A DNA stretch of 21,065 bases from a virus (Duplodnaviria > Heunggongvirae > Uroviricota > Caudoviricetes): the IMG/VR virus record IMGVR_UViG_2718218228_000013, one strand, 5' to 3'. The position numbers and the translations under genes are program-made. This document shows, piece after piece, positions 1 to 18,414 of this stretch (positions within the stretch are counted from its first letter, which is position 1; the number at the start of each line of letters is the position of its first letter). Below the pieces are notes generated by a model. That model had not been told where the DNA came from. It worked only from the letters and a program-made list of their open reading frames with translations, and made no database searches.

Positions 1-125
1 ATGTCTGCACCTGCATTGCCTGATGTCAGAACAGTATTTTGATTAATTGCCAGGGTTACAATGGCACAAATGCGGCACAGGAGGAAACGTGGTGTATTTA
101 AATATGGGGTAACTACTTGATTTAA

Positions 126-142
126 ATGGTGCGATAATAGGA
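126..142. repeat. Left att-type direct repeat of the P4-like element (ATGGTGCGATAATAGGA)
   Basis: 17/18 identity (one 1-nt gap) with 13012-13029, which is the 3' end of the tRNA-Thr fragment next to int; same orientation. Confidence 0.55.
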
Positions 143-675
143 ACCAATAATCGCCACCAACACAATGATTTTAATACATAAATTAAAATAGAAGATTTAA
201 ACTACACACACCCCTATACACATTGGTGAAGGCGTTCGCTTTCCGCGCATTCTCAAGGCAGAAAAAACTTTTTTTGGGGGAAAACTGTTCATACTACTCA
301 TTGTGTTTTTTTTCATTAATATTCAAAAAGATATGAAATTAACGATTGATAAGAAGTGAACACTTTACTGTTCACCTTGACTGATTAATAAGTGCATAAA
401 AACCTAATTTTTGAGCACGGAAGGTATTTGTTCCTTACCCCATTTTTTCTCTTTAGTCCAGTACAACAAAAAATGCGCCCAACAGAAAACTGTTTTGAAT
501 TTAAATGCAATCGCTTTGTAGTGATTGTAACGTAAGTTGATTTGATGGGTGCGATTTTGTTTAGCGATAATGGTATGTTGTAAAAATCATTTCGTTGCAA
601 TAAAATTGCATCGCTACATTTTATAGACAATATCAATTAAATTTTAATACTCATTATTAATTTTGAGGCTAACAA

Positions 676-1632
676 GTGACTAGTTATTCAAACTTTTCCA
701 ATCAAATAAAAGAAACCATCAATAATAAATTCGATCATGAAATTCATGATTGGGACATTATAAAAAACTCAATCACAACTTTAATAAATAAAAATATCCA
801 TGGTGCAGGTAGAAATATCGTTGATTTTATAGATTTAGGTAACTGGGATTTTATTTCAAACTTTTCCTTTGATGACTCTACAAGAAGACTTGAATTAGAG
901 TGGCACCCCAATGATAAATTCCATATATATATTGAGTCCGTTGTGTTTGTCGAGTTTAATGACACTATATATGCTTTCTTAAAGGGATACTATCACAATC
1001 AGTTATCTCTAAATAGAATATATAATACAAAATGCTCTTCATGTTCATTTGAAAACTCAGGTTCTTATATGGTAGACGTTTATAGAACGGTTAAAAGAGT
1101 AAATGAGACAATCCAGACCCCAAATATAAATTGCTATACTACATGTATTTTAACAAGGCCCGCAAATGGTCATGTTACATCTACAGGCTTCTCACGAAAC
1201 CTCATGGATGCGATAAATATTTCATTAGCAGAGCACAAAATAGCCTCTTTACATAATGAAGTCATGAGTATTGAGGAATATGATCGTGATTCTTTACAAG
1301 AGAAAGGAAATACTGCCAGGAGATATTTAGAATATATTCTCATGCTTGTTAATATTCGTATAATGCATTTAAACAACGTTCAATACCAAGAGCAAATGCT
1401 AGGTAGTTTAGTTTCTGTTATTGAGGCTCTGGACTATGAACCATTAATGAAAAATGATGTTGAAATTACAAAGGACATCCTTAATGCTTGCAGCCACCAC
1501 GGGGGGGTTAGAATTGAAAAGAAAGATGTAATTTTTTCTTTGGAAGTTATTGAAAACTTAATTAAAGCCATAAAGAAAACCGACATAAATAAATTACAAC
1601 TCGATGGGATGTTTAAATCAATTCAAAAATAA
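676..1632 (+). CDS. Hypothetical protein (318 aa), AT-rich cargo gene between left att repeat and primase
   Basis: Long ORF with GTG start; GAGG 7 nt upstream; much more AT-rich than the adjacent primase gene. No motif recognised. Confidence 0.6.
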   Translation: MTSYSNFSNQIKETINNKFDHEIHDWDIIKNSITTLINKNIHGAGRNIVDFIDLGNWDFISNFSFDDSTRRLELEWHPNDKFHIYIESVVFVEFNDTIYAFLKGYYHNQLSLNRIYNTKCSSCSFENSGSYMVDVYRTVKRVNETIQTPNINCYTTCILTRPANGHVTSTGFSRNLMDAINISLAEHKIASLHNEVMSIEEYDRDSLQEKGNTARRYLEYILMLVNIRIMHLNNVQYQEQMLGSLVSVIEALDYEPLMKNDVEITKDILNACSHHGGVRIEKKDVIFSLEVIENLIKAIKKTDINKLQLDGMFKSIQK

Positions 1633-1764
1633 ACATCATCTAACAATGAATTAGATGCATTTTCCGCTGACGCCTTAGCATATAACTTTTAAATTTTATC
1701 GATATATATTTTGAGATAATTTCCTGTAGCGGATTTAAGACCGGCACAGCCGGTCTTAGGTCAG

Positions 1765-4098
1765 TTATTTCGCTGCAAACTCATCGCATTTTGGCAACCA
1801 GTCAGCATTGCTTTCCTCTCTTAGGGCCAGATTAGTCTGCATTCCTTGATTGGTCCGTCGTTTCTCATACTGCAGCCCATATTCCTTGAGCATTAACGGT
1901 AGCCCCTTGCCAAACATGGTCAGACTGAGCGTATTTTTATAGCCGTTAGCCTCCATGTAGACCAGATAGGCATGGTAGAGGTAAGTTCGAGGCTGACGTG
2001 GAACAATATTAGCGTTCCCCATAAACATGCCCGTGGTGTCAGGTAGGACCTCAAGGTAGCCGCAAAAATCAAAAGCTGAATCAGCATCACGTTTGATGGT
2101 GAGCGCTTCATCGGAGTTCTGCTGTGACTGAAGCAATGTCCTGGCACTCATTGGGTCGCTGAAACGCTGCATAAGCTGGCGAACAATCACCGCTAGCTCA
2201 CTGGCAATTTTCTCTTTGAGCTGGGTATCGCGTTCCTCCGGGGCTATCTGGTCGGGGAAATGCAGGATCACCCTTCGGCGTGAAACTCCACCACTACGAT
2301 CAGTGAAGCGCATCGGATTATTGTTCACAGCCAGGATGACCGCCGGGATGTGGGTTGAATAGGCGTTCTGATATTTGGGATCAACGGATACCGCATCGCC
2401 GCCAGTGATGGCTTTTAGTCCGGCCCCGTCACCGCTCCACTTTTCCTGGTCGGGAAGTCGAATCAGTGAAAAACCTATTAACGCAGCTCGTTCTCTTGGC
2501 GACTCAAGCATTTCAATGGTTGCCGAGGTCGCGTTATCTTCACCCGCCAGCATGGTTGCTATTTCAGCAAGAATACTCTTTCCACTTCCGCCAGGGCCAG
2601 TGACCTCCAGAAACAGCTGCCAGTCATAACGGTTAGCCAGCACCATAAACAATGCAGCCAGAATAATGTCCCGTTTTTCAGGATTAAAACCTGCGGCACG
2701 ATCCAGCCAGCGCCAGAATGCCGGGGCATGGGTTTCCAGTGACTCACCGTCAACGGGCTGCGTGTAATCCACCTCGCACAGCGTACGTAACCAGTGCTTC
2801 TTATCGTGCGGGCTGAACAATCCTGTCCGGGTATCGAGCACACCGTTGCGAAATCCGATAAGTTGCCGCGCCGGATTCTGCTGTTGCGGAACGATCAGTT
2901 TGAGGGTTTCCACGAGAGACGCAATTTTCGCGGATGAAAAAGGTGCGTCGAGGCGCTGAAACAGCGCAGCGACATCACGGGCAAAATCGGCGTAATAGAT
3001 AACTTTCCAGGCCCCCGCCTCATAGCGTGAAAGGAGCTGCCCGTTCGGGTCTACTGCCAGTGAATTTTTATAGTGATCCACTACCCTCTGCGCTTTTTCG
3101 CTGACGCTCAGCGCGGTAAATTCAGCTTCGCTCATTGTGTCGAAGGGGCTGGCAACAGCTGGTTTTATTACTTCATGAATTGCATGCCGGGTGGCTTCTT
3201 CGCCGTTTTGCGTGAATGCATCGTTCCAGTCACCAAACACAGGCGGGAGCGCCATTGTGCAATTGCAGGCCCCGGTAACAGCTGCGCCCCTTGTTTGCCC
3301 CGCACCGTTGAGATCGCGGTCAGCAGCAATAATTATCTGGTGCGTTGGGTACTCACTGCAGGCAATGCTCGCCAGGGAAAGGAAATTGACGGACGAAAAG
3401 GCCACCATGACAGCATCGCCAGTCAGATAGTTGATAGTAAGTGCGGTGGCATATCCTTCCGCTATCCAGAGCCGTTTGGCTGCTTTGGCAGTACCTTCAA
3501 CCAGGTAAAAGGCATTCTTAACCTGACCGCCTTTAAGGAAGCATTTGCCCCCATTAGCGTTGATTAACTGCAGATTTACCAGCTCTCCATCTGCATACAA
3601 TGGAACGACAAGATCTCCCGCGCGAAATGCCACACCACCGACTTTATGCATAGCGGTTAATTCCCGGCAAGGCAGTGCAGGAAACCCTTTACTCGTCAGA
3701 TAGGCATTGCCAGTGGTCTGGCGGGACTTATCAAACAAACGGGCAGCCAGCACTGCTGCAGCTTTTCTCCCGTCCTCTTTTTCAGGAGAACCAGATTCAA
3801 GCATTCCCTGAGATACTGGCAGCAGGTTTCCGATAATGCCGTTTATTCTGTCTGCCGCTTCACTAATGCCTACATCCAGTACTTTACTTACAAGCGCCAG
3901 GCCATCACCTGCCCCGCACTGGTTACAGAACCACGTTCCCCGCCCTTCCTGGTCATCAAATCGAAAGCGGTCTTTCCCGGCACAGACCGGGCAGGGCTGG
4001 TGCCGATTTTTCAGTACATTTACGCCCAGCGCAGGTAAAATTCTTGACCAGTGACCCCGAGCTGCTTTCTCAGCCTGGCTAACTTTCATTCCTGACAT
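1765..4098 (-). CDS. P4 alpha-type DNA primase-helicase (777 aa)
   Basis: ORF 1765..4155; start placed at the internal ATG (4098) preceded by AAGGAGGG. N-terminal Cys-rich zinc-binding primase region (CPVCAGKDRFRFDD...WFCNQCG); Walker A-like GPGGSGKS. Length equals P4 alpha (777 aa). Confidence 0.92.
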   Translation of the reverse strand: MSGMKVSQAEKAARGHWSRILPALGVNVLKNRHQPCPVCAGKDRFRFDDQEGRGTWFCNQCGAGDGLALVSKVLDVGISEAADRINGIIGNLLPVSQGMLESGSPEKEDGRKAAAVLAARLFDKSRQTTGNAYLTSKGFPALPCRELTAMHKVGGVAFRAGDLVVPLYADGELVNLQLINANGGKCFLKGGQVKNAFYLVEGTAKAAKRLWIAEGYATALTINYLTGDAVMVAFSSVNFLSLASIACSEYPTHQIIIAADRDLNGAGQTRGAAVTGACNCTMALPPVFGDWNDAFTQNGEEATRHAIHEVIKPAVASPFDTMSEAEFTALSVSEKAQRVVDHYKNSLAVDPNGQLLSRYEAGAWKVIYYADFARDVAALFQRLDAPFSSAKIASLVETLKLIVPQQQNPARQLIGFRNGVLDTRTGLFSPHDKKHWLRTLCEVDYTQPVDGESLETHAPAFWRWLDRAAGFNPEKRDIILAALFMVLANRYDWQLFLEVTGPGGSGKSILAEIATMLAGEDNATSATIEMLESPRERAALIGFSLIRLPDQEKWSGDGAGLKAITGGDAVSVDPKYQNAYSTHIPAVILAVNNNPMRFTDRSGGVSRRRVILHFPDQIAPEERDTQLKEKIASELAVIVRQLMQRFSDPMSARTLLQSQQNSDEALTIKRDADSAFDFCGYLEVLPDTTGMFMGNANIVPRQPRTYLYHAYLVYMEANGYKNTLSLTMFGKGLPLMLKEYGLQYEKRRTNQGMQTNLALREESNADWLPKCDEFAAK

Positions 4099-4111
4099 TG
4101 TGCGGCCCTCC

Positions 4112-4435
4112 TTAGTGCAGCGCTGGTTTGTTGAGGTGACGGGAACAAAGTTCATCCATGACCGTCATTCCGAGCAGTGAGAGAACCGGACAGGCTTTAA
4201 GCGGCCCCGACTCCATCAGATCCGAAAGCAACGCGCAGGCAATTTCCAGCCCTCTTTGCTGCCCATGCTGGCGCAGATAGAACCCTTCCAGCTCGCGGGC
4301 TATGGCATCTTCAAGTTCAGCGAGCGTCAGGCCGGAATAACGTTCCTGATGATTGCTTAGAGCCAGCCAGGCACAGGCAACGGCACGGCGATACAGAGCG
4401 GCACGAAGTGCCAGAAGAGATTCACAGCATATCAT
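4112..4435 (-). CDS. Hypothetical protein (107 aa) upstream of primase
   Basis: ORF whose start overlaps the upstream gene stop (TGATG-type) and ends 13 nt before the primase start. No motif recognised. Confidence 0.5.
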
Positions 4436-4656
4436 CAGGCCACCTCCGCATTCATCAGGTCGTCATGGCAGCGTTGCACCACTCCATCCAGTTGCTCTGT
4501 CATCAGATAAATGAGGGAAACCAGTTGTTCGCATTGGGCACCTGCTGGCTTTTCATAACAGTCCTGCAGGGCTGCCATGCCAGTTACATACTCACCCACA
4601 TTGCGTAAATGTTTCAGCCTTACAACATCGTCGTAGGAAATCTCAAACTGGTTCAT
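4435..4656 (-). CDS. Hypothetical small protein (73 aa)
   Basis: ATG start with GGAGG 9 nt upstream; ATGA overlap with the upstream small gene. Confidence 0.5.
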
Positions 4657-4847
4657 AGCGTCACCTCCCCGGCAGGCAGCCGTGCAGAAAGGGAGAGTAC
4701 ATAATCTCGGACTAGCAAACGGCGCGCGGAACGCTCATCGCAGGAGACAGTGCGAAGCATACAGATGCGGGGGTGAGTGTCAGCACGGCGGATTGCGGCA
4801 AACACAAAGACATATTGCGGGTGTGACGGGGTGAGGATTGTAGCCAT
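4653..4847 (-). CDS. Small protein (64 aa), possible Icd/Kil-like host-interference protein
   Basis: Internal ATG of the 185-aa ORF, preceded by GGAGG with 8-nt spacer; sits where P4/P1 immunity regions carry kil/icd. Identity is a guess. Confidence 0.35.
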
Positions 4848-4879
4848 GATGGCAGCCTCCAATAAGTAGCGGTTATTGC

Positions 4880-4980
4880 TACCACCGGAAACGCCAATTT
4901 CACTGGTGGCAGCCCGAACGGGGTTGGCGTAACCGGCCTTATTGGAAACCGGCCAGCCCGAAGGCTGCCCCGCCCGGACT
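4880..4980 (-). ncRNA. Candidate c4/cI-type antisense immunity RNA region
   Basis: Hairpins (CAGCC-CGAA-GGCTG at 4954-4967) and three GGCAGCC/GGCTGCC motif copies in mutually complementary orientations, one overlapping the RBS of the downstream small gene (4851-4860). Boundaries approximate. Confidence 0.3.
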
Positions 4981-5206
4981 ACCATTATCTCGATAGAACC
5001 ATGGTGTAAGCATAAACACCACAGCCCTGAAAATGGTTGTGCCTGAGCTACGACGTAAAAAAAGACGCAAGGGGCGTCAATTGTCGCCAATAAGTTATAC
5101 GGAACGCCAATTCCGGCTGCCGATTTTGCGACAGCGGAAAAACTATACCTGGAAATGACGACAGTAAGCAAGCCAGAATAAAGGTATTTAATGTATGCAG
5201 GTATCA

Positions 5207-5467
5207 TCATGCATCACATCCCCGCCCACGGGCGCTGATGCGGTCCGCCATCCATGCGCTGACCTCAGACTGTGCCCAGGCGACATTTTTACCGCCAAGC
5301 GGGATCTGCTTCGGAAACGCATCGCGGCTGATCAGGTCGTAAACGGTCGAACGGGACAACCCGCATAAGTGCATCACCTCAGGCAGGCGTAAAAATCGCT
5401 CATGATGGTTCGATACAGGAAATAATGGCGCAGCAGGAGCTGGCGCAGACACAGAAATATTACGCAT
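5207..5467 (-). CDS. alpA: AlpA/Vis-family phage transcriptional regulator (excisionase-like HTH)
   Basis: [23 protein letters not shown]...[12 protein letters not shown] matches the AlpA family pattern; AGAGGG RBS upstream. Confidence 0.8.
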
Positions 5468-6019
5468 TTATCTACCCTCTTTAATTTCCACAACAGTCCG
5501 GATGAATTTATCCGGGTTCAGGTAGTTCCTTATTATGTGTATATAAACCACCTGCGCACGCATTTTTTATTTAGCGTCACATATTGATTTTATGGAATTT
5601 AAAGCCCGATTAAACCATATAAAATGACATAATAAATACCATGCCTGCGGACTATAAATACAGGAGCATTAATAGGAACTACCATTCACCCAGGGTTTAC
5701 TATCCTATGGGTCATTGCACCTGATAGTGCTAACCCCACCGCCAATACAGCAAGGCAGTACAACTTCTACACGAGGCCTTGCATTGCAGGCCCCAATTTC
5801 CGGGCATATTTTTGAATCGCATCCAACTTATAAACATTGGGCCTGCATAAAAACCTTGATATTAAATAACATCACCTTAAATCGTAAAATATATCCGAAT
5901 GAATCCATAAAGAACCGGACAGATCTAGTTTTATAAAAATCAGTATGAAATGCAACACCATGGCCAGAGGCGAAAATGTTATTCCCCGGCAAAAACATGC
6001 AGTCTATTTATGTGCCTGT

Positions 6020-6234
6020 TGAATACTCCTGAATAAGGGTGAATAGTGGTGAGGAGCAAAAAACAAATAGCTACGAGGAATAAAAAAACCACCCATTATG
6101 AAAAAATACCATAAATAATTTTATTCCCATGTGAACAGTTATGAACAGTCGATGAATACTGCCATGCCAACCCTTCACCTTATAACCTTCTGTATTACCT
6201 ATTTTTTTTACCTAAGTGAATAGTAGTGAATAGT
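6020..6234. repeat. Cluster of at least 7 direct 8-9 bp iterons TGAA(T/C)A(G/C)T, candidate alpha-binding crr/ori-type site
   Basis: Copies at 6020, 6040, 6132, 6142, 6153, 6217, 6227, mostly 10 bp apart; reverse complement contains TGTTCAC, the P4 type I iteron core. Similar motifs at 286-295, 356-364 and 369-376. Confidence 0.5.
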
Positions 6235-6312
6235 TAAGGTAAGTCTGAAACAGCCTTAGTTAAACGAGGCCTTTTCTGGCTAGCCAAAAGAGGTCCGGGG
6301 CGGTTCAGTCTT

Positions 6313-6330
6313 TGTCTTGTCGCTCGCACA
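6313..6330 (+). promoter_or_regulatory. Candidate Ogr/Delta-dependent late promoter element (TGT-N12-ACA dyad) upstream of sid-like gene
   Basis: TGTCTTGTCGCTCGCACA fits the P2/P4 late-promoter activator dyad, about 70-90 bp upstream of the ATG at 6401. Confidence 0.4.
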
Positions 6331-6400
6331 ATGGCGTTCAATGGCAGCTTTGTATGCATCACAGCACAATTGACACCACGACAAACCACTAGGTGCTGAC

Positions 6401-7153
6401 ATGACAATCCCAGAACAGAACAATAACCCGATCGTTGAAATTTCTATCCCTGTTTCGACGCAACAGGCGCTTGAGAAAGTGAATGCCACCAAATCTGCAT
6501 GGCTTGAAGCACGTCGTCAGCAAAAAGCGGCAGCGGATAATATTGCGACAATCCGCCAGCGCCGCGCTGAAATGGAAGCCACGACGAACGCCCTGAATGA
6601 GGAGTGGCGCACGCTATTTCGTGAAAGTCAGGGCGTAGTCTCAAAGGAAATGAAAAAACTGCGCACGGAAATTGCGCTGGGACGAGAAACGCTTGAGGAT
6701 TTTGATGAGCTGCTGGCGGCTCAGGAAAGCGAAAATGCACTTTTGCCGCAGGAGGCTGCGGAATTAGCCGGAAAGTATATCCACGCGCACGACACCCTTG
6801 TGGGTATTCGCGCAAAACAAATCTGGGAAGATTTTATGCAGTCGCATGGAAAAGCACTAATCCAGACACTAAGCCTGCTCAAATCAACAATGGGCAGGGA
6901 AGCCAGCGCAGTTGTCGGTGTGGTGCATTCAGTTAATGACCCGGACACACTGCTGAAAGATTTTATTCATAAACATATCACCAGACCGGCTCTGACTAAC
7001 GATGCGATGCCCGAACAGGACCCCGTGTTTAAACTGGCGGGAGTTGCCCCGGATTATGCGGCCCGTCTGGATTTCAGTAATAAACTCTCTCCAGCAGCTA
7101 TGCATAAAATGAAGGTTCGTCAGGAACGTGCTGAGAAGGAGAAAGCAGTATGA
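6401..7153 (+). CDS. sid: Sid-like capsid size determination (external scaffold) protein
   Basis: 250 aa (P4 Sid 244 aa); first gene of the late operon; internal similarity to the downstream Psu-like protein; stop overlaps the next start. Confidence 0.6.
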   Translation: MTIPEQNNNPIVEISIPVSTQQALEKVNATKSAWLEARRQQKAAADNIATIRQRRAEMEATTNALNEEWRTLFRESQGVVSKEMKKLRTEIALGRETLEDFDELLAAQESENALLPQEAAELAGKYIHAHDTLVGIRAKQIWEDFMQSHGKALIQTLSLLKSTMGREASAVVGVVHSVNDPDTLLKDFIHKHITRPALTNDAMPEQDPVFKLAGVAPDYAARLDFSNKLSPAAMHKMKVRQERAEKEKAV

Positions 7154-7701
7154 TGGCCCGAGTCACTCCAGACCAAGCGCTTATCAGTTTTAGAAATGCC
7201 CGTATTCTGTGGGCTGGACATAGTGAGAGCCGAAAAGCCGTTGAACAACAGATAGAATCACTCCTCACTGCCATGGAAAAACCAGCAGATTATGCTCGAC
7301 AGCTCGAATTACAGCGGGAACATCTGGATGTGCTGAAATGGCAAATTAACTGTGCTGCGCGCGAATGCATTTACTCGCAGCATCAACTGATGGAGGCCTG
7401 CACAGAAGACGCTCTCAGCAATTTTATGCAGGCGAATGGAGCAGCCCTGACATCTGCACTGGCTCCGTTCCTGAAGGGGCGCGGAGGGGTTGACGTTGCG
7501 TCCCGTATATTACGCAATGCTCTGGTTCGCCAGCTGGCAATAACACCGCCTGAAATTGCCGGGGATTATCGTATGATTCTGGATGAATCCGGTGTGATGC
7601 CTGACCCCATGATGGTTCGTGATTGCCAGAGCTCTTACACCCCTGCACAACAACTGCGCTTTCAGCAACGTCTGGATTACATTAACGGCATGCAGGAGTA
7701 A
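7150..7701 (+). CDS. psu: Psu-like polarity suppression / capsid decoration protein
   Basis: 183 aa; LKWQINCAARECIYS, FMQANGAALTSALAP and YTPAQQLRF resemble P4 Psu as I recall it. Confidence 0.7.
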   Translation: MMARVTPDQALISFRNARILWAGHSESRKAVEQQIESLLTAMEKPADYARQLELQREHLDVLKWQINCAARECIYSQHQLMEACTEDALSNFMQANGAALTSALAPFLKGRGGVDVASRILRNALVRQLAITPPEIAGDYRMILDESGVMPDPMMVRDCQSSYTPAQQLRFQQRLDYINGMQE

Positions 7702-7706
7702 TATTA

Positions 7707-7979
7707 ATGGCACTTAAATGTCCCGAATGCGGTACGACGGCACACGCCAGAACCTCCGCCTATGAAGCACCATCGGTTAAACGCTCATGGTATCAGTGCC
7801 AGAATCTTGAATGTTCCTACACATTTACCGCACTGGAAAGTGTGGATACGATAATCATGAAGCCCCGGCGCAATGAACAGGAATCAGAGAAAGCACAAAT
7901 GCCGGAAAAACAACAGCAAACTCTCAATCGCTATGGCTCCGCGTCAAAGCTGTCAAGCCGTCAGCAAATTCCTGTCTGA
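7707..7979 (+). CDS. Ogr/Delta-family zinc-finger late transcriptional activator
   Basis: CPECGTTAHARTS...YQCQNLECSYTF, the classic Ogr/Delta Cys4 motif; 90 aa. Confidence 0.9.
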   Translation: MALKCPECGTTAHARTSAYEAPSVKRSWYQCQNLECSYTFTALESVDTIIMKPRRNEQESEKAQMPEKQQQTLNRYGSASKLSSRQQIPV

Positions 7980-7999
7980 TTAGCAAAAAAAGCCCACGT

Positions 8000-8027
8000 A
8001 ATCCCGGTCCAGTACTGGGATTTTTTA
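8000..8027 (+). terminator. Rho-independent terminator after the late operon
   Basis: GC-rich palindrome AATCCCGGTCCAGTACTGGGATT followed by TTTTTT, about 20 nt after the Ogr/Delta stop. Confidence 0.6.
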
Positions 8028-8332
8028 CGCCTTTTCCCTGGCTGGCCTGAGAGCGCATGAGTGCATGTCTATAGCGCATGAAAACGCATGATTCTCATGC
8101 ACCATTTTTGACGCGAAAGCCCTTGTGTGGTGGCTTCTGAGACGATTTGCGGAATGCATGAAAACCAGTCTGTTAAGCGAAGCGAGCAGGCGTGGGGGGC
8201 TGCGCGCGCTAAGGGGTTAGATTATAAAATATCAAACGCCGGTGAGATCCATTATTGTGGAACCACCCGAAGGAAGTGTAGAGGCGAAAGTACCCAAAAT
8301 AATTTTGCAAATTATTTAGAAATGAACTGAGC

Positions 8333-8358
8333 GCTCGAAACGAAATATAATTTCGAGC
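8333..8358 (-). terminator. Hairpin downstream of the minus-strand hotspot cassette (candidate terminator)
   Basis: GCTCGAAA-N10-TTTCGAGC inverted repeat about 30 nt after the stop of the last cassette gene; flanked by T-rich sequence. Confidence 0.4.
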
Positions 8359-8388
8359 ACCCCAATTAGCAGTTATATTTTTAATGTA

Positions 8389-8955
8389 TTAAACAGGATA
8401 AAAACCAGAGCTTCCATTCTTATTTAAGTTATGGATTTTATTTGCATCATTAATTTTTATTTGGAACGTCGGACCTTTATTCTCAAGAATTACAATCTGG
8501 AAATTATAGTCCCTTTTGATTAATGCGTGATAAAATGAATCACTGAGACTGACGCTATTAACATCCGATAGAGAACCCCCTCTATCTTTATCAAAGTGCG
8601 TCACTAATGGACTATCAAGCACAACAAATCCAATGAATGGATTCCCTTTTCTTGATAAAAATTCCGCAAAGCAAATGGTAAATATAGCATGCATTACTGC
8701 ACGGGTACCTTTACCAAACATTCCTCGGCGTTTCCCATTGATATTAAAGTCATATGTATCTTCGTCAAATCGCACTTTGTTATCTTTAGAATTTTCAAAA
8801 TTTATATCATTCAAAAAGTCTTGCATCGCTATTTCTATATCATACAAATCAGCTACTGTTAAGGAGTCAAAGTCCTCGGCGGAGTATTTAAGTTCGTCAA
8901 CATCATCTTCTTTATCTTGTAATGAAGATAGAATGCTATGTTTTGTGTGATCCAT
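8389..8955 (-). CDS. ABC/SMC-like ATPase C-terminal lobe (Walker B-like FVVLDSP), hotspot cassette gene 6
   Basis: 188-aa ORF; hydrophobic strand + D (PFIGFVVLDSP); ATG overlaps upstream stop as TAATG; could be a frameshifted continuation of the upstream ORFs. Confidence 0.55.
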   Translation of the reverse strand: MDHTKHSILSSLQDKEDDVDELKYSAEDFDSLTVADLYDIEIAMQDFLNDINFENSKDNKVRFDEDTYDFNINGKRRGMFGKGTRAVMHAIFTICFAEFLSRKGNPFIGFVVLDSPLVTHFDKDRGGSLSDVNSVSLSDSFYHALIKRDYNFQIVILENKGPTFQIKINDANKIHNLNKNGSSGFYPV

Positions 8956-9545
8956 TAAAAGATTGTCTTTATATTCATAAAGTGATTCAAGAGATGAATG
9001 TATTGTTTTATATTTTTATCTTCTAACGTCTTAAAATCACTTTTTTCTGATTGATAAATTTCATTAACATCATTTTTTCTTAACATAATTAATTCATGTT
9101 CGCGAACATTAGATCCGATTGATTCAATTAATCCTTTCAGCTGGCTTTTGATTTTCAATTTTTCTGCATTACACGACAAAAAACAATCATCATATGATAT
9201 TTCATTTTCTTTTTTTTGCGGTGTATTACAGAACTCACAATAAATATCTGCAAAATTATTTAAATAGAAATTCGCCTGTGATACAACATCTATTCTTTGT
9301 AGATCTATAAAGTATTGGTCTTTAAGAAGACTAAATCTTTCAATGAGTAATGATAAGTATTTTTCCCTGTCACTGATTGAATATAATTCATCACTTAACT
9401 CTTTTAATAATTGCTTCTTATCATCAAGTGCATCAACAATACCTTTCAATATATCTTTCGATGATTCAATATCTTGCTCTACTTTCTCAAGTTCTCTTGA
9501 AACAATGACTTGATCATATTCAGGATAAATTAATTGCGCTTTCAA
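8955..9545 (-). CDS. Coiled-coil segment with central CxxC (CEFC), hotspot cassette gene 5
   Basis: 196-aa K/E/L-rich heptad-like sequence; same frame as the upstream Walker A ORF, separated only by one TAA (9576-9578). Confidence 0.5.
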   Translation of the reverse strand: MKAQLIYPEYDQVIVSRELEKVEQDIESSKDILKGIVDALDDKKQLLKELSDELYSISDREKYLSLLIERFSLLKDQYFIDLQRIDVVSQANFYLNNFADIYCEFCNTPQKKENEISYDDCFLSCNAEKLKIKSQLKGLIESIGSNVREHELIMLRKNDVNEIYQSEKSDFKTLEDKNIKQYIHLLNHFMNIKTIF

Positions 9546-9575
9546 TTCCTCATAAATATTTGCAATTTGATTTTT

Positions 9576-10226
9576 TTAAAAATATCTTGCTTTTTTATTT
9601 GGTTTTTCTGCTAAGGAGTTAGTATCATCTCTCTGAGTTAAAAGGAATTTAAATTCAGACTTTCTTTTTGTCTCCTCGCTAGGAATATCAGAAAGAATTA
9701 ACGACTTCTCAGTTAACACTCTTAATTCATCAATACAAAAAAATTCAAAAACATTATTAAGATTAAATTTATGAAGAGTATTACTTAAGTTTGTTCTTAC
9801 TTTAGCCTCTTTGAAATTCAACCTACCATAAAAGTATGATGAAAAACTCTTTTTAGACGAAGCACTTTTGGAAAAAACCATCAACAGATTAGCTTCACTA
9901 ACATTTTCAATGCTCGAATCATATAATCTGTAATGGGCGCTATCCTGAAGAGACCTCTCAATTGTCATTACCCTACCTTGAAAATTAAATTCCAGATAGG
10001 CTAAATCATAACCTTGAGCATGATCGATATCTTTATTTTTTAGTTTTTCACTCCCTAATAAATATCGAATCAAATAATATATGTATGTTTTTCCAGAGTC
10101 AGAACCACCATATAAAATAGTCAATTTAGAACCAAATTCAATTATAGCATCTAATTTATTGAATCCGGTTACCTTTATTTTTCTGAACGTAAAAAAATTG
10201 TCATTCATAATTAAATTCCATATCAT
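9576..10226 (-). CDS. ABC/SMC-like ATPase N-terminal lobe (Walker A GGSDSGKT), hotspot cassette gene 4
   Basis: LTILYGGSDSGKTYI P-loop in a RecF/SMC-like N-terminal context; ORF opens at TTG 10235, ATG starts at 10226 or 10208; ends at in-frame TAA. Confidence 0.6.
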   Translation of the reverse strand: MIWNLIMNDNFFTFRKIKVTGFNKLDAIIEFGSKLTILYGGSDSGKTYIYYLIRYLLGSEKLKNKDIDHAQGYDLAYLEFNFQGRVMTIERSLQDSAHYRLYDSSIENVSEANLLMVFSKSASSKKSFSSYFYGRLNFKEAKVRTNLSNTLHKFNLNNVFEFFCIDELRVLTEKSLILSDIPSEETKRKSEFKFLLTQRDDTNSLAEKPNKKARYF

Positions 10227-10659
10227 ATTTGCCAATTTTATTTTTTATAATTGATTGCAACTGCTCATCAGGAATATCACTATATAACTTAACCACCAAA
10301 TTTATATTATGCTCCATCTGCGCAACATATTCATTATGTAGAGAATTTGTAAATGCATATGTTTTTTCAGAAGCTTTATATACAAAACCACGATGTGTAT
10401 AAATTTTTGAGGCTAGTTCATAGCCTTGCAACAAAGCCAATGATTCTAAAACAATCTCTCGTTTTAGGGCTAACTGAGCATCTCTACGGGGTATTGGAGG
10501 ATGAAGACTAATCTCTTCAGGTAAAAAATCCTTAAGATTTACTAAAATAAAATCAAAACAAATAAGCCGTTCAAGGCTTAATGAAGAAGGATAAATAGCG
10601 ACGAGCACTTTCGCCATTCGACATGCCACTTCTAAACTTGAATTATAAATTCTAACCAT
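10201..10659 (-). CDS. Hypothetical small protein (about 152 aa), hotspot cassette gene 3
   Basis: ATG at 10659 overlaps upstream stop as TAATG; GGTGA 4 nt upstream; stop overlaps start region of gene 4. No motif recognised. Confidence 0.5.
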   Translation of the reverse strand: MVRIYNSSLEVACRMAKVLVAIYPSSLSLERLICFDFILVNLKDFLPEEISLHPPIPRRDAQLALKREIVLESLALLQGYELASKIYTHRGFVYKASEKTYAFTNSLHNEYVAQMEHNINLVVKLYSDIPDEQLQSIIKNKIGKYDMEFNYE

Positions 10660-11276
10660 TATCTCACCGTCCAAATTACTTCACCATCATTAACCAAATG
10701 ATGGCATATTCCTTTTTTATCATTTGCTTCACATATTTTTGATAGTACTGAATGTGCAATTGGTGTCAGAACAGCCTGCTTCAAGACTGCATTACACCTA
10801 ATAAATGCATAATTATGGTCTTCATAAAAGACGGGTTCAATTGAAGATGAAATGTAACATTTCAATGCTTTGAATACATCATCTTTAAATACTTCGCGGA
10901 CAAAAACCTCAAGCGAAGATGCAAAATAAAAATCATTTCTACTATTATTAAAGTGTCGTCTGTATGGATCATCAAGCTCTAAGAAAGAACTATAAGTTTT
11001 ATTTCCATGCTCTGAATAGGCTTGAAGCAGTGCATTAACATATACAGACTCTTTTTTTGAATTGTATGTTGGAATTTCATTTGGAGGGATTCTCACGACA
11101 TACAGCTCGTTAAAGTACTTAAAATAAAGGTGTGTATTTGCAATATCATTTAAAATCAATGATAAGGGTAGAGAGTAAAAAATACTAAAATCAAAATCCT
11201 CAATATATTTTTTTATTTCATCATCTAATGGAATATCAATCTTTTTAGTTATTTTTTTGAAATTGCTGAATCCCAT
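10659..11276 (-). CDS. Hypothetical protein (205 aa), hotspot cassette gene 2; possibly C-terminal part of a frameshifted gene 1-2 fusion
   Basis: AT-rich ORF with one candidate start; overlaps gene 1 by 28 nt across an A7 tract where a 1-nt indel would fuse the frames. Confidence 0.5.
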   Translation of the reverse strand: MGFSNFKKITKKIDIPLDDEIKKYIEDFDFSIFYSLPLSLILNDIANTHLYFKYFNELYVVRIPPNEIPTYNSKKESVYVNALLQAYSEHGNKTYSSFLELDDPYRRHFNNSRNDFYFASSLEVFVREVFKDDVFKALKCYISSSIEPVFYEDHNYAFIRCNAVLKQAVLTPIAHSVLSKICEANDKKGICHHLVNDGEVIWTVR

Positions 11277-11665
11277 GAATCAAGGACTGCTTTTTTAAGC
11301 TCGTTTTTATTTTTCAATAAATTAGAAAATGTAGTAGATAAATCATAGGGTGCCACAAAAAAGTACTTCTGAGGGATGGGATAATCACCATTCAGAGTAA
11401 AATAGATAAGTTTTCCAAACTCAACTACAACATCAGAGAACCCTAAACTTTTTTTGTACAGTTTGCATTGATAATTATCCCAAGAATAACCTTCTACGTT
11501 AGGATCCGATTTATATCCAACAACGTCTCTACCTTTATCTCCAGCTCCTCCCAAACGTTCGCTCCACGGGTAATCATCTGATTTACAGACAATAAGCCAA
11601 TCATGGACAAATACCCCCCATTGTTCATCATCCCATGTCAATATTTCCGAAAGTGGTTGAGACAC
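11249..11665 (-). CDS. Mrr-type PD-(D/E)xK restriction-endonuclease-like domain protein (138 aa), hotspot cassette gene 1
   Basis: GGAGDKGRDVVGY ... YQCKLYKK matches the Mrr catalytic pattern; GTG start with AAGGAG 7 nt upstream, 3 nt after the int stop. Confidence 0.55.
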   Translation of the reverse strand: MSQPLSEILTWDDEQWGVFVHDWLIVCKSDDYPWSERLGGAGDKGRDVVGYKSDPNVEGYSWDNYQCKLYKKSLGFSDVVVEFGKLIYFTLNGDYPIPQKYFFVAPYDLSTTFSNLLKNKNELKKAVLDSWDSAISKK

Positions 11666-11668
11666 AAA

Positions 11669-12850
11669 TTAACTCCTTTTTAGTCTTTCAAATATCAAAT
11701 TACTGTACCAGTCCATCATAGACTTCCTTCCACTAAAATATTGAGCATGGTTATAAGTCCCCCTAATAGAATTTTTATCTACATGAGCCAACTGGATTTC
11801 AATCCAAGCACTCTCAAAACCTTGCTCATGCAGGATTGTAGAAAGGGTATGACGAAAACCATGTCCAGTGACTTTTCCTCCATACCCAATACGCTTAATG
11901 GCTTGATTTATACTCGCTTCGCTCATTGGCCTATTCGGATCGTTCCGCCCTGGAAAAACATAACGATAGTTCCCTGTCATGATCTTGAGTTCATTGAGTA
12001 AATCTACCGCTTGAGATGATAAGGGCACAAGATGTGGCCTACGCATTTTCATCCTTTCAGCAGGAATTTCCCAAATAGCGTTATCCAGATCAAATTCTTG
12101 CCATAATGCCGCGCGTAATTCGATGGTTCTCACACCCGTAATCATCAGTAATTTCGTGGCTATCTGGACAAGCTTACTCCCGGAGTAACCCTCTAAGGCA
12201 CGTAGAAAATCAGGTATCTCATCAGCTTTTAGGAATGGGAAATGATTGGATTGGTGTACTTCGAGAGCGCTGGAGAGATCAGCCGCAGGATTGTACTCCG
12301 CCCTACCCGTTGCAATTGCGTAGCGAAACACTTCGGAGCAACGCTGCCGCACTTTGCGCATTTTCTCCAACGCACCACGTTTCTCAATTTTACGCAGAAC
12401 GTTCAGCAGCTCTAGCGGTTTAATCTCTCCCACAGGCCTTGTTCCGACATAAGGAAAAATGTCGTTCTTAAACGCTTCCATGATGTCTGATGCATATCCC
12501 GCCGACCATTTAGCAGATTTAAGTTGATGCCACTCTCTGGCTATCTTTTCGAAGGCGTTCTCTGACTCTGTTTGCATAGCTAGCTTTTGCTCTTTTCGAA
12601 CCTCACTAGGGTTCTTTCCTTCTGCCACAAGTTTTCGAGCTTCATCACGACGGGAACGAGCATCGGCAAGGGTGATCGTTGGGTAAACACCAAGCGAGAT
12701 CATTTTGGGTTTGCCGGCATAGCGATAGCGGAACCGCCAACTCTTGCTTCCATTAGGTTCTATAAGTAATGACAACCCTAGCCCATCTCCAAATGTATAG
12801 GCTTTAGCTTCAGGCTTAGCGCGGCGAATCTGCATATCGTTTAAAGGCAT
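11669..12850 (-). CDS. int: P4-type tyrosine integrase
   Basis: MPLNDMQIRRAKPEAKAYTFGDGLGL N-terminus and C-terminal HGFRHT...Y catalytic region; start placed at ATG 12850 (ORF opens at 12901). Confidence 0.92.
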   Translation of the reverse strand: MPLNDMQIRRAKPEAKAYTFGDGLGLSLLIEPNGSKSWRFRYRYAGKPKMISLGVYPTITLADARSRRDEARKLVAEGKNPSEVRKEQKLAMQTESENAFEKIAREWHQLKSAKWSAGYASDIMEAFKNDIFPYVGTRPVGEIKPLELLNVLRKIEKRGALEKMRKVRQRCSEVFRYAIATGRAEYNPAADLSSALEVHQSNHFPFLKADEIPDFLRALEGYSGSKLVQIATKLLMITGVRTIELRAALWQEFDLDNAIWEIPAERMKMRRPHLVPLSSQAVDLLNELKIMTGNYRYVFPGRNDPNRPMSEASINQAIKRIGYGGKVTGHGFRHTLSTILHEQGFESAWIEIQLAHVDKNSIRGTYNHAQYFSGRKSMMDWYSNLIFERLKRS

Positions 12851-12900
12851 GTGTATAGGAATCCAGACCGAACAGGAACATATACACAATCCTATACACA
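12850..12900. promoter_or_regulatory. Perfect 11-bp inverted repeat (TGTGTATAGGA / TCCTATACACA) bracketing the int translation start region
   Basis: Arms at 12850-12860 and 12890-12900 separated by 29 bp, immediately upstream of and overlapping the int ATG. Confidence 0.4.
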
Positions 12901-13012
12901 TTCAGTACCGGATTCTACTGGATGGTTACGGACTACTATGGACTTAAAAGAATAAAAAATGTTATAAATCAGAGATTTTATGGACTAATACGGACGTTTG
13001 AGGAAGTTGAGA

Positions 13013-13058
13013 TGGTGCCGATAATAGGAGTCGAACCTACGACCTTCGCATTACGAAT
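13013..13058 (-). other. 46-nt 3' fragment of a tRNA-Thr(CGU) gene (anticodon loop to CCA), right att copy of the P4-like element
   Basis: Reverse complement ATTCGTAATGCGAAGGTCGTAGGTTCGACTCCTATTATCGGCACCA matches the 3' part of enterobacterial tRNA-Thr(CGU) as recalled; no complementary 5' acceptor strand, so not an intact tRNA. Confidence 0.75.
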
Positions 13059-13405
13059 TATAAGAATCCGCTTCTAATTCAAAGCATTACCCCATCAACA
13101 CTGCGCTCACACGTCCCACCACATCAAAACATGTAAAGCCTTGCAAGCCATTGCGAGGCCTTATGTGTCTCAGTTTTGTCCCACCTTGTATTACGACTTG
13201 CATAGCCAATGAAGATAAACGTGACGACAAACGGCGCAGCAGTCTTCTTTTCTTTCACGACTTCTCCAGCATGCATACCTTTCTGCCATGACTGAAGTGA
13301 ATGCCTGTTATGAGCAAGGATTGGCCCAGATGAATCGCCCTGGACTGTTGCGATCGTGAAGCCATAGACTGGGCCGCAAGCACGGGAGGTTACGATAAAG
13401 CGACA

Positions 13406-13771
13406 GTGCAGGATGTCATGTTAGGAGCGATAGAAAAACGCTTTGGCGATAAAGTACCGGAACAGTCCATCCAGTGGCTGACAGATAACGGTTCAGCGTA
13501 TAGAGCGCATGAAACACGGCAGTTCGCCAGAGAGTTGAATCTGGAGCCCTGCACAACGGCAATCAGCAGTCCTCAGAGTAATGGAATTGCAGAAAGGTTC
13601 GTGAAAACGATGAAGGAAGACTACATCGCGTTCATGCCGAAACCGAATGTAAGAACGGCATTGCATAATCTTGCAGTGGCGATCGAACATTACAATGAAA
13701 ACCATCCGCACAGTGCGTTGGGTTATCGCTCTCCGCGAGAATATCGACGTCAGCGGGTAACGTTAACTTAA
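13406..13771 (+). pseudogene. IS2-like (IS3 family) transposase OrfB C-terminal fragment; IS remnant about 13130-13810
   Basis: [11 protein letters not shown]...[16 protein letters not shown]...[14 protein letters not shown] is the DDE-core C-terminus typical of IS2 OrfB; no upstream OrfA or N-terminal OrfB in frame. Confidence 0.7.
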
Positions 13772-13812
13772 GATACCCCCCCTGTCTGGAAATAAGGGGG
13801 CAAGAACAATGA

Positions 13813-14556
13813 TCAGATTCCCTGGTGAGTAAGAATTTTACTTTCTGAACTCCTCTGAGAGTATTGACTTGGAGAAACACCAAAATAACGTCTAAATACA
13901 TAAGTAAAGTATGAGACACTGGCATAACCACAGACCTTAGCTACTTTACTAATAGGATAACAACGAGTGCTGAGTAAATATTCAGCCATTTGCATCCTCT
14001 CATCAAGTATGATCTTACTGAATGATACCCCCTCTTCTTTCAATTTCCTCTTTAGTAAACTTTCGCTGAGATATAATCTTGATGATATATCCTTAAGACG
14101 CCATGGTGCAGATAAATCCGTATGAATAATCGTTTTAACTTTAGCCCCTGTGCTTTTCAAACATCCAAACAGAAATACTCCAAATTGTTTTTCAGAAGAA
14201 AATGCAGAGAGACATGTAAAAGCAATAGACTCATCAAAAATTTCTATGTATTCAGCACAGTGATTAGCCCAACTAATTAATCCTTTAATTAAACTGAAGT
14301 CAGCAAAGTTTATTTTTAAATAAGATGGATATTCCCTACAATCAGAAATATCCCTTAAGTTATTAGCTTTCAAATAGCGACTAATAAACTCAGCGCCAAA
14401 ATCCGCCACTATCACTCTTTCAGGATATGTCAGGAAAAAATCTCTAGAGCTAGAGTCGACAAGTACAGATGAACCTCTCTCCAGAAACACACTCTCTTTT
14501 CCGAAATAAACATCAAAGGACTCCAAAATCAATATAACTGAACATGTAGTTGCCAT
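13813..14556 (-). CDS. AraC-family transcriptional regulator (AppY/EnvY-like)
   Basis: C-terminal AraC-type HTH (LKDISSRLYLSESLLKRKL...YFTYVFRRYFGVSPSQY); AT-rich. Confidence 0.8.
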   Translation of the reverse strand: MATTCSVILILESFDVYFGKESVFLERGSSVLVDSSSRDFFLTYPERVIVADFGAEFISRYLKANNLRDISDCREYPSYLKINFADFSLIKGLISWANHCAEYIEIFDESIAFTCLSAFSSEKQFGVFLFGCLKSTGAKVKTIIHTDLSAPWRLKDISSRLYLSESLLKRKLKEEGVSFSKIILDERMQMAEYLLSTRCYPISKVAKVCGYASVSYFTYVFRRYFGVSPSQYSQRSSESKILTHQGI

Positions 14557-15138
14557 ATCATCCCCCCAATTTAACTGAAACCAGGATGAAGTATATGTAT
14601 ATAAAGTTCACTTTGCCAAACTTCAGTATAAAAAACCACTAAAAATAGGGTGTGATAAAAAATACCGTAACAATAAAGCAAAGGATTATAAATTCCGTTA
14701 CAGTTACAAATGATACTCAAGAAACAATTCCTTAGGAAAAACTTATTTACAGCCAATAAGTAAGACACTTATATGATATCAAGTTTTCATAAAACATAAC
14801 TAGGCTAAATAGCTGCGCCTAATACCGCTACACTTTTGCCAGCCCATGTTTGCCTCCGGGTATTGACCCCTTCTCTACGCAACTTCAGTTCCCACCACCA
14901 ACTTTGCGGCAGCTTTGTAGGATCAATGTCTAAAAGAATAATGGTGACCGATAAGAAAACGACTGAATAACTGCAGATTTTCGCTCAAAACCTTCCTGTC
15001 AGATCCATAGCGAATCAAGTGCTGAATGTCACAGTATCGAACAGAAAACAGTGACGATCTAACCCTTCAAGAATATTCTACGATTGTTCTGTTTAGGAAA
15101 AGCAAGACGGGAAGTCGGGAGATAAGTCATTGATAAAG

Positions 15139-15200
15139 TGGCGGAGAGAGGGGGATTTGAACCCCCGGTAGAGTTGCCCCTACTCCGGTTTTCGAGACCG
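15139..15200 (-). other. 62-nt 3' fragment of a tRNA-Ser(CGA) gene (serU-like), probable att remnant of the prophage remnant
   Basis: Reverse complement CGGTCTCGAAAACCGGAGTAGGGGCAACTCTACCGGGGGTTCAAATCCCCCTCTCTCCGCCA matches the 3' two-thirds of E. coli serU as recalled; 5' part absent. Confidence 0.7.
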
Positions 15201-15283
15201 ACCCGATCATCAAACGAAACATAAAATTAGCTCACATTATGAGGAAAGGTATCTTTTTGCGCTATGTAAATTCAAAGGGTTAG

Positions 15284-16153
<870 letters not shown>

Positions 16154-16210
16154 ATCTTCAAGTGGTAAGCATAAACCGCAGCACGATCTTGCATACGACG
16201 TGCTACGGTT

Positions 16211-16765: not shown

Positions 16766-16791
16766 GGTAGATCTCCCTGACAAAAGCAGGA

Positions 16792-18306: not shown

Positions 18307-18414
18307 CCTGAATAAAATTACTCACCAACAGCCCACCAACTGTAATTCATCGATACCGTGTGAACCGCCCCGGGTTTCCTGGAGACTAAACTCCCTGAGA
18401 AAGAGGTAAACAGG

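Follow-up and report, generated by a model that had tools for sequence, protein, structure and literature searches.

The analysed stretch of 21,065 nucleotides (the window) can be assigned with high confidence to the thrW (tRNA-Thr CGU) integration hotspot of E. coli O157:H7, where two elements lie in tandem. Many O157:H7 chromosomes match the window at 100% identity, and the annotation just beyond its right end lists an intact thrW and then proA. Read outward from the tRNA, the order is proA, thrW, Sp1, a 46-nt copy of thrW, Sp2, a 17-bp copy of the core and the host flank (Table 1). The literature places Sp1 and Sp2 at thrW (PMC8190617) and describes Sp2 as the P4-like prophage of Sakai (PMC2669165). 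The satellite described here is the same element as Sakai Sp2: published descriptions (P4-like, beside Sp1 at thrW; PMC2669165, PMC8190617) agree with it and no material difference was found. The thrW hotspot, P4-like satellites with a defence hotspot and decayed O157 prophages are all well documented, and the overall finding is an ordinary one that is already known. In strain EDL933 the Sp2 element is named CP-933I. The value of the analysis is mostly corrective, in that the window edge had cut off the intact tRNA gene, and the gain for annotation is a set of exact ends for Sp2 and Sp1.

Table 1. Features of the window and of the two tandem elements at thrW
Feature	Position	Strand	Evidence or remark
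Host chromosome, native sequence downstream of thrW, after the 3' end of a LysR-family regulator gene	1..125	.	Contiguous with thrW and proA in 948 E. coli genomes
Sp2 distal att core (attR in tRNA orientation), ATGGTGC-GATAATAGGA, one C shorter than thrW	126..142	+	
Body of P4-like satellite prophage Sp2	143..13011	.	Gene content
Candidate arm-type integrase binding repeats, tandem pair CTACACACA and CTATACACA, alpha-side arm	202..222	+	
318-aa orphan gene, 31% GC, variable slot between alpha and distal att core	676..1632	+	
Alpha primase-helicase (annotated CDS 1765-4098)	1765..4155	-	Zn_Ribbon_Prim, Toprim_3, D5_N and Pox_D5 domains
P4 CI-type immunity RNA region: C4 antisense RNA (4902-4989) and isrK RNA (5058-5135)	4902..5135	-	Rfam
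AlpA/Vis-type excisionase-regulator	5207..5467	-	Pfam Phage_AlpA
Genes acting on helper phage: Sid-like (6401-7153), Psu (7150-7701), Ogr/Delta (7707-7979)	6401..7979	+	
Lamassu system (lmuA-lmuC-lmuB) broken into six ORFs, defence hotspot between delta and int	8389..11665	-	PADLOC
P4-family tyrosine integrase (annotated start 12850)	11669..12901	-	Arm-DNA-bind_3, Phage_int_M and Phage_integrase domains
Candidate int-side arm-type repeats: inverted copy 12850-12858 (int start), tandem pair 12880-12888 and 12892-12900	12850..12900	.	
Sp2 int-proximal att core ATGGTGCCGATAATAGGA	13012..13029	+	
46-nt 3' part of thrW, anticodon loop to CCA	13013..13058	-	Identical to 3' 46 nt of intact thrW
Sp1, internally deleted remnant of thrW-integrating prophage	13059..21065	.	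Runs 14 bp past window (to 21079)
IS2 transposase (TnpB) C-terminal remnant inside Sp1-type prophage end	13337..13771	+	NCBIfam IS2 TnpB
IS1203/IS629 (1,310 bp)	18361..19670	+	ALIL pseudoknot, annotation, comparison with CEC03102
Sp1 tyrosine integrase, N-terminally truncated	20091..21065	+	Pfam Phage_integrase; annotated partial

For both elements, the proposed route of entry is site-specific recombination at the thrW 3' end, catalysed by a tyrosine integrase, which would leave a second copy of the common core at the end of the element distant from the tRNA. The core used by Sp2 would be short and lie at the extreme 3' end of the tRNA, and that used by Sp1 would be long, starting in the anticodon loop and extending about 10 nt past the CCA end. 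The initial annotation had delimited a satellite of roughly 12.9 kb by an imperfect direct repeat, and this was confirmed. The coordinates and sequences of the repeat, ATGGTGCGATAATAGGA (126-142) and ATGGTGCCGATAATAGGA (13012-13029), are exact, the two copies are the only ones in the window, and they are the attachment-site cores of a P4-like satellite (12,886 bp from repeat to repeat) with int at its 13-kb end. The tRNA-Thr(CGU) 3' fragment that had been seen next to int is likewise real, since positions 13013-13058 on the minus strand are identical at 46 of 46 positions to the 3' end of the thrW that lies outside the window.

The initial annotation had also stated that neither copy of the repeat extends into a full tRNA. 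Within the window this is correct, as ARAGORN found no tRNA there. It fails 15 bp beyond the last base, where intact thrW occupies the equivalent of positions 21080-21155, 8.0 kb to the right of the satellite. An intact tRNA-Thr gene with different repeats had been named as an outcome that would overturn the proposed boundaries; the intact gene does exist, and what it shares with the fragment is the longer 46-nt repeat. The observation itself is therefore confirmed and its earlier interpretation partly supported, the picture of a locus with no intact tRNA having arisen because the window ends 15 bp short of thrW. The 46-nt copy, which also borders Sp1-type prophages that stand alone at thrW, serves as Sp1's distal attachment repeat and thereby marks the junction of the two tandem elements. 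At the int-proximal end of Sp2 the tRNA is not rebuilt intact here; only 46 nt of thrW abut int, because Sp1 separates it from the intact gene.

The states of the site were surveyed in 5,426 E. coli genomes. In 948 the site is empty: the LysR gene is followed without interruption by the host flank, thrW and proA (about 99% identity). An alignment with genomes lacking the element, as had been proposed, thus gave a clear answer: the flanks are joined exactly at the repeat and host sequence resumes at base 125/126. One such empty site (L004) carries the identical flank, ...ACTACTTGATTTAAA|TGGTGCC. An Sp2-type element stands directly beside intact thrW in 120 of the genomes, namely O55:H7 DEC5A and 119 others, with the intact tRNA rebuilt at the int end of the same element. 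The match to Sp2 in this arrangement is 99.8% in DEC5A and 100% in the sorbitol-fermenting (SF) O157 strain 493/89 and a few O157:H7 strains. An Sp1-type element alone, with the 46-nt repeat against bare host flank, was found in 310 genomes and the tandem Sp1-Sp2 junction in 323.

These arrangements decide against the explanation that had been offered for the half tRNA, namely that an already existing tRNA remnant received the satellite, or that the 5' half was lost by a rearrangement linked to IS2, and that the locus has no intact tRNA. The absence of tRNAs inside the window and an IS2 TnpB remnant 278 bp from the fragment speak in its favor, and the remnant is genuine (13337-13771 matches positions 149-289 of 301 of the IS2 TnpB profile). 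The intact gene, however, lies only 15 bp outside the window, and the sequence adjoining the fragment on its right belongs to a thrW-integrating prophage, of which it forms a conserved end, so that what looked like a pre-existing remnant is the distal repeat of Sp1, with Sp1 standing between it and the whole gene. The 46-nt repeat and this prophage end also lie on bare host flank in the 310 genomes that carry no satellite, and they bound a complete 39.6-kb prophage. The IS2 remnant is in the same place in those satellite-free genomes and in the PapM-32-1 prophage, and it is annotated under all 22 of the listed full-length matches to the Sp1-alone junction. As it starts 278 bp inside the Sp1-type prophage end, it is cargo and not the cause of the truncation. 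We regard the remnant or rearrangement explanation as very improbable; the existence of an intact thrW and of single-element genomes refutes it. More generally, a half tRNA beside an integrase with no whole tRNA in view does not require a rearrangement; tandem occupancy of one tRNA site suffices. The repeat is short and imperfect, and it could be suspected of being a chance match with the element ending elsewhere. The chance of this is negligible and the suggestion is already refuted: the repeat pattern gave 0 matches in 100 dinucleotide shuffles (none is expected by chance), host sequence resumes exactly at the repeat in the 948 empty-site genomes, the core is also where related elements of other genomes terminate, and arm-type repeats flank both copies.

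For the tandem arrangement, the most likely order of events is that Sp2 integrated before Sp1, giving the state found in O55:H7 and sorbitol-fermenting O157. Sp1 would then have integrated into the rebuilt thrW, pushing the old 46-nt 3' portion and the attached Sp2 8 kb away. The order is unreadable from the sequence because either order yields the same final structure, and our preference is based solely on which lineages carry which element. The reverse order, in which Sp1 entered thrW and the satellite then used its 46-nt remnant, which retains the 17-18-bp core, is unlikely. It gains some plausibility from Sp1-type prophages alone at thrW being common (the 310 genomes above) and from the experimental demonstration of integration into the attR of a resident prophage for Sp10/Rac (PMC2669165). 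Against it, Sp2 (99.8-100%) lies directly beside thrW, without Sp1, in O55:H7 DEC5A and SF O157 493/89, the strains most closely related to the tandem lineage, and a precise loss of Sp1 would be needed in them at least once.

A direct repeat matching the thrW 3' end is present at both ends of Sp2, with one indel. The pattern ATGGTGC[N0-1]GATAATAGGA occurs in the window only at 126-142, with a single C, and at 13012-13029, with CC. The missing C could be taken for a decay mutation that blocks excision. We rejected this, since independent elements in different hosts share this form. A single-C distal core is also present in O55:H7 DEC5A, F404, VR50 and OkiPb01694; the E. coli loci that carry it are L002, L005, L014 and L015, and in L013 the distal core is shorter still (TGGTG--ATAATAGGA). 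Intact thrW carries CC in all six full loci read (L002, L005, L006, L013, L014 and L015). As the tRNA-side copy is always CC and the distal copy always shorter, we infer that strand exchange in Sp2 takes place inside ATGGTG(C), leftward of the position at which the copies differ. This stretch consists of the tRNA CCA end and one flanking base, and its length is typical of a 6-7-bp overlap region. The missing C in 126-142 would then derive from the attP of the satellite itself and not from decay, and the one-base mismatch is a trait of the family rather than a sign of a dead site.

Outside E. coli, the distal core was scanned for in species-representative genomes, which returned four loci, too few for statistics. 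Three genera (Citrobacter, Scandinavium and Enterobacter) had the single-C form in unrelated flanks, and a related element in Raoultella had CC, which makes the shorter attP core common in the family and not universal. The alpha gene was absent within the fetched stretch of two of the four scanned loci, those of Enterobacter and Raoultella. Two points have perhaps not been spelled out before, and we put them forward tentatively. One is that thrW-targeting P4-like integrases may use an attP core 1-3 nt shorter than the tRNA sequence, with strand exchange confined to the terminal ATGGTG(C), in which case the att repeats would be imperfect by construction. The other is that a second variable cargo position may lie between alpha and the distal att core. 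In Sp2 this slot holds the 318-aa orphan, which had no match among Pfam, NCBIfam, PHROGs or PADLOC profiles and could be an undescribed defence or accessory gene; in L005, L014 and L007 the slot is empty.

For excision of Sp2, the predicted circle junction is ...GAGGAAGTTGAG-ATGGTGC-GATAATAGGAACCAATAATCGCC..., and the predicted healed site is host flank ...CTTGATTTAA-ATGGTGCC...46 nt...-TTATAAGAATCC. In Sakai, a published PCR assay made without a helper detected no circular Sp2, whether or not mitomycin C was added (PMC2669165 Table 2).

The gene content of Sp2 was compared with that of satellite phage P4 (NC_001609). A common gene order runs through int, the hotspot, psu/delta/sid, the immunity RNA and alpha, although Sp2 has sid-psu-delta where P4 has sid-delta-psu. 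Identity to P4 is highest for alpha (72.4% over 98% of its length), followed by ORF106 (67%) and the AlpA/Vis protein (63% to ORF88, annotated as excisionase and transcriptional regulator). Both components of the immunity RNA exceed the Rfam gathering score (C4 at 84 bits, isrK at 71.9 bits). Of the genes acting on the helper phage, Psu (Pfam Psu, 4.8e-42) is 31% and Delta (Ogr_Delta, 1e-16) 39% identical to P4, and the gene at the Sid position is Psu-like (phrog_6165 at 5e-96), with no direct tblastn match of P4 Sid itself in Sp2. A megablast of the satellite against a phage collection returned no real relatives; two small "phage" records that it yielded proved to be chromosomal int-thrW-proA fragments of another enterobacterium.

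Two parts of P4 were looked for in Sp2 and not detected. Among Sp2 ORFs of at least 60 aa, none matches P4 epsilon or the ORF151 region, and only five match that part of P4, covering alpha, ORF106, cI and ORF88; an epsilon homologue sits instead on the P2-like Sp13 (PMC2669165). The P2/P4-type cos GGCGAGGCGGGGAAAGCAC, a 19-mer checked against the end of the P4 record, was not found in the window at up to 3 mismatches, and a blastn search of the window with the P4 cos region, run at low stringency, yielded no match above chance level. A divergent cos is possible, but on this sequence evidence the packaging competence of Sp2 appears doubtful.

The hotspot described between psu and int (PMC9122126) holds gop-beta-cII in P4 and a broken Lamassu system in Sp2, where PADLOC assigned two ORFs to LmuA, three to LmuB and an intact one to LmuC. 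In relatives the cargo between psu/delta and int is DRT3, a Gabija-like pair or a reverse-transcriptase cassette.

The attachment regions of P4 and Sp2 are also alike. In both, the att core starts at the tRNA CCA end (TGGTGCC...) and lies about 150-160 bp from the int start (the Sp2 int gene is about 110-160 bp from the core at 13012), and in both the arm repeats comprise a tandem pair on each side with an inverted copy at the int start. The candidate int-side arm of Sp2 resembles in layout the P4 attP arm repeats at 3915-3926 and 3942-3965 (NC_001609), and the alpha-side pair has a core spacing like that of the P' arm repeats annotated in the same record. The P4 core is annotated there as 20 bp, and the core of the Sp2 element is one base shorter than the tRNA. 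Sp2 Int targets thrW, whereas P4 Int, 38% identical to it, targets a different tRNA 3' end. The integration target of P4 is leuX.

Sp1 is an 8-kb remnant of a prophage of about 40 kb. Positions 13012-16845 are 97.4% identical to one end of the 39.6-kb PapM-32-1 prophage, and positions 20147-21065 are 100% identical to the other. The latter prophage is complete, with an HK97-type head, a contractile tail and lambdoid regulation, and is bounded by the same 46-nt repeat as Sp1 and by intact thrW. Compared with it, Sp1 is missing about 30 kb of interior genes as well as the N-terminus of the integrase, and has acquired IS1203. The part homologous to the 372-aa PapM-32-1 integrase starts at 20147, and the stop codon of the Sp1 integrase lies 15 bp from intact thrW. 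Next to IS1203, Sp1 here has lost 3,838 bp that some other O157 strains retain.

Tandem prophage arrays are known elsewhere in Sakai, where Sp10 and Rac are arranged in tandem through integration at the attR of the resident prophage (PMC2669165). For Sp10 beside Rac and for Sp17a/Sp17b, as here, the second element recombines with a site rebuilt or left by the first. In arrays of the Sp10/Rac type, a partial att or tRNA copy stays between the elements (PMC2669165), just as the 46-nt copy does at thrW. Sp1 and Sp2 differ from such arrays in that their integrases are unrelated and their cores differ (46 bp or more for Sp1, 17-18 bp for Sp2) at the same tRNA gene.

Many E. coli O157:H7 chromosomes match the window over its full length at 100% identity. 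We examined the locus with 12-kb flanks in strain 644-PT8 (locus L001), where the window differs at one base. In the annotation of that genome, paoABCD, further genes and a LysR regulator precede 12.9 kb in which a set of P4-type genes ends with an integrase. Next come 8 kb of prophage remains (IS remnant, AraC regulator, GIY-YIG protein, pin invertase, tail-fibre pieces, IS1203 and a partial integrase) and, after them, an intact tRNA-Thr(CGT) gene followed by proA and proB. Since the intact gene lies 15 bp outside, its absence is a product of the window cut. At thrW, the tRNA-Thr(CGU) gene, there are two tandemly inserted elements. The left-hand element (143-13011) is the P4-like satellite Sp2; the right-hand one, from 13059 to just beyond the window, is the deleted remnant Sp1, with the 46-nt tRNA fragment as its distal attachment repeat. 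The arrangement is already documented for O157:H7 genomes: Sp1 and Sp2 are both placed at thrW (PMC8190617), and the P4-like prophage of strain Sakai is Sp2 (PMC2669165).

Features of the tandem thrW insertions (window positions)
Feature	Position	Remarks
Distal core	126-142	ATGGTGCGATAATAGGA, read directly
Candidate arm repeat, tandem pair	202-222	CTATACACA; 60-80 bp from distal core
Orphan ORF	676-1632	318 aa, 31% GC; between alpha and distal core
Alpha primase-helicase	1765-4155	72.4% identity, 98% of P4 alpha length
C4 antisense RNA and isrK RNA	4902-5135	Minus strand; Rfam; immunity region
P4 ORF106 homologue		67% identity
P4 Vis/ORF88 homologue		63% identity
Counterpart of P4 cI-region product		57% identity; Ash/Icd-like domain
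Psu		31% identity to P4 Psu
Delta		39% identity to P4 Delta
Sid position		Occupied by Psu-like protein
P4 defence hotspot, between delta and int	8389-11665	Lamassu (lmuA-lmuC-lmuB, 'ABC-three component'), broken
Sp2 integrase	11669-12901	P4-family three-domain set; 38% identity to P4 Int
Candidate arm repeat, inverted copy	12850-12858	Over annotated int start
Candidate arm repeat, tandem pair	12880-12900	CTATACACA
Int-proximal core	13012-13029	ATGGTGCCGATAATAGGA, read directly
tRNA-Thr(CGU) fragment	13013-13058	Minus strand; final 46 nt, anticodon loop to CCA end
IS2 remnant	13337-13771	IS2 TnpB positions 149-289 of 301
Invertase and tail-fibre fragments	16211-18306	Pin-type (Resolvase + HTH_7)
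IS1203/IS629	18361-19670	1,310 bp
Sp1 integrase	20091-21065	Truncated
Intact tRNA-Thr(CGT)	21080-21155 (equivalent)	L001 33080-33155

The initial annotation had proposed that a 17-bp repeat bounds a satellite of about 12.9 kb. The repeat is real: when both strands of the 21 kb were searched with a pattern tolerating a one-base gap, these two sites alone matched, and 0 of 100 dinucleotide-preserving shuffles held any match. The boundaries proved right as well, from junction comparisons across 5,426 complete E. coli genomes, against which three artificial junctions and one native window junction were searched, each count requiring one contiguous match. The comparison with empty sites that the initial annotation had suggested found 948 genomes in which host flank (to base 125) runs into full thrW and proA at ~99% identity; in strain 88-3493 the site reads ACTACTTGATTTAAA followed by TGGTGCCGATAATAGGAGTCG, with a flank the same as window 105-126. 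A direct run from the Sp2 int end into full thrW and proA was present in 120 genomes, the host flank joined to the 46-nt fragment and the sequence right of 13058 (the Sp1-alone junction) in 310, and the native junction (12609-13461) in 323. Absence of an intact tRNA, also claimed, holds inside the window, where ARAGORN found none, and fails for the locus. Past the 46-nt match the sequence departs from the tRNA (TTATAAG...). The attribution of the half-tRNA to a tRNA remnant or IS2-linked rearrangement was mistaken, the fragment being Sp1's own repeat.

In strain PapM-32-1 the Sp1-alone junction forms the distal end of a prophage that is complete at 39.6 kb; at its opposite end 15 bp separate the integrase stop codon from intact thrW, and each end has one copy of the 46 nt. 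Window 13012-16845 matches one end of this prophage at 97.4% identity and 20147-21065 the other at 100%. Homology to the 372-aa PapM-32-1 integrase begins only at 20147, so ~66 N-terminal residues are missing, and Sp1 probably cannot excise itself. Comparison of window 21056-21065 and L001 33056-33079 with window 105-125 showed that likeness to the host site extends past the tRNA end (GTAACTTATTGATTTAAA beside intact thrW versus GTAACTACTTGATTTAAA in the native flank); therefore the Sp1-type core is longer than the 46 nt of tRNA. The IS2 remnant was rejected as the cause of the tRNA truncation, because it sits 278 bp inside the conserved Sp1-type end and occupies that position in PapM-32-1 too, a strain lacking the satellite; it is annotated under every one of the 22 full-length matches listed for the Sp1-alone junction. 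Elsewhere in Sp1, the IS1203/IS629 copy adjoins, at 18361, a deletion: 3,838 bp present in O157 strain CEC03102 (L012 18662-22499) are missing, and the tail-fibre, replication, cII, cro and cI remnants went with them. The pin-type invertase has as neighbours fragments of tail-fibre and tail-fibre-assembly genes in opposed orientation; together they are what is left of an invertible host-range segment.

Either order of integration yields the observed structure. Entry of Sp1 before Sp2 would give an identical end product, but it is improbable, given that one O55:H7 strain and one sorbitol-fermenting O157 strain carry this Sp2 beside intact thrW without Sp1. This Sp2-thrW junction is 100% identical in sorbitol-fermenting O157 493/89 and a few O157:H7 strains and 99.8% in O55:H7 DEC5A, where the entire Sp2 directly abuts intact thrW. 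The simplest history is Sp2 first, with Sp1 later entering the rebuilt thrW.

The distal core of Sp2 is one C short. The same single-C core occurs in DEC5A, in F404 (DRT3 at the defence hotspot), in VR50 and OkiPb01694 (both with a Gabija-like pair), and, with unrelated host flanks, in Citrobacter amalonaticus, a Scandinavium MAG and Enterobacter sp. EA-1. Strain 700462 has a shorter form still, TGGTG--ATAATAGGA, and Raoultella has CC. The intact-tRNA copy has CC in all six full loci (L002, L005, L006, L013, L014, L015); the short form is therefore the element's attP, re-created at each integration. In the distal junction the part to the left of the crossover comes from the host and the part to its right from the element, which would put the crossover left of the C/CC position; judged from the junctions, strand crossover probably falls within the shared ATGGTG(C). 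This 6-7 bp block is the size of a tyrosine-recombinase overlap region. In EA-1 (L006 3534-6421) the single-C P4-type core lies 2.8 kb from intact thrW, next to which is the 3' end of an integrase gene of Sp1 type (72% identical); the locus is a decayed form of the same two-family occupancy of thrW, in another genus.

With one mismatch allowed, CTATACACA occurs at three places near the Sp2 cores, and of its nine matches across the 21 kb, five fall in two short att-side stretches (202-222 and 12850-12900). The layout mirrors the annotated arm repeats around the 20-bp core of P4, and the Sp2 att regions look P4-like. The adjacent C4 and isrK RNAs lie upstream of the Ash/Icd-like gene, the same CI-type immunity RNA arrangement as in P4. 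No epsilon homologue was found in Sp2, nor the P2/P4 cos sequence at ≤3 mismatches. The P4 cos position corresponds to 7980-8388, where a G-rich stretch, GGCGTGGGGGGCTGCGCGC (~8189-8207), may represent a divergent cos site or may mean nothing. PCR for circular Sp2 in Sakai was negative with and without mitomycin C (PMC2669165 Table 2).

In the Sp2 Lamassu system, LmuA is spread over two ORFs and LmuB over three; in DEC5A two LmuB pieces are fused, yet a stop codon interrupts the middle gene. In related satellites at thrW, this hotspot is occupied by DRT3, by a Gabija-like nuclease with UvrD helicase, or by a reverse-transcriptase cassette. The 318-aa orphan had no match in Pfam, NCBIfam, PHROGs or PADLOC. 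Its slot, between alpha and the distal core, is vacant in the related elements of F404, VR50 and Citrobacter, while the Scandinavium element has another orphan there, of 356 aa (L008 5811-6881); these satellites may thus have a second variable position for cargo. A 1.8-kb record in the phage collection, OR845657.1 ('Escherichia phage ECO95 1-6-1'), holds a P4-type int 5' end, then intact thrW and proA; by this content we rejected it as phage DNA and regard it as a chromosomal fragment of another enterobacterium.
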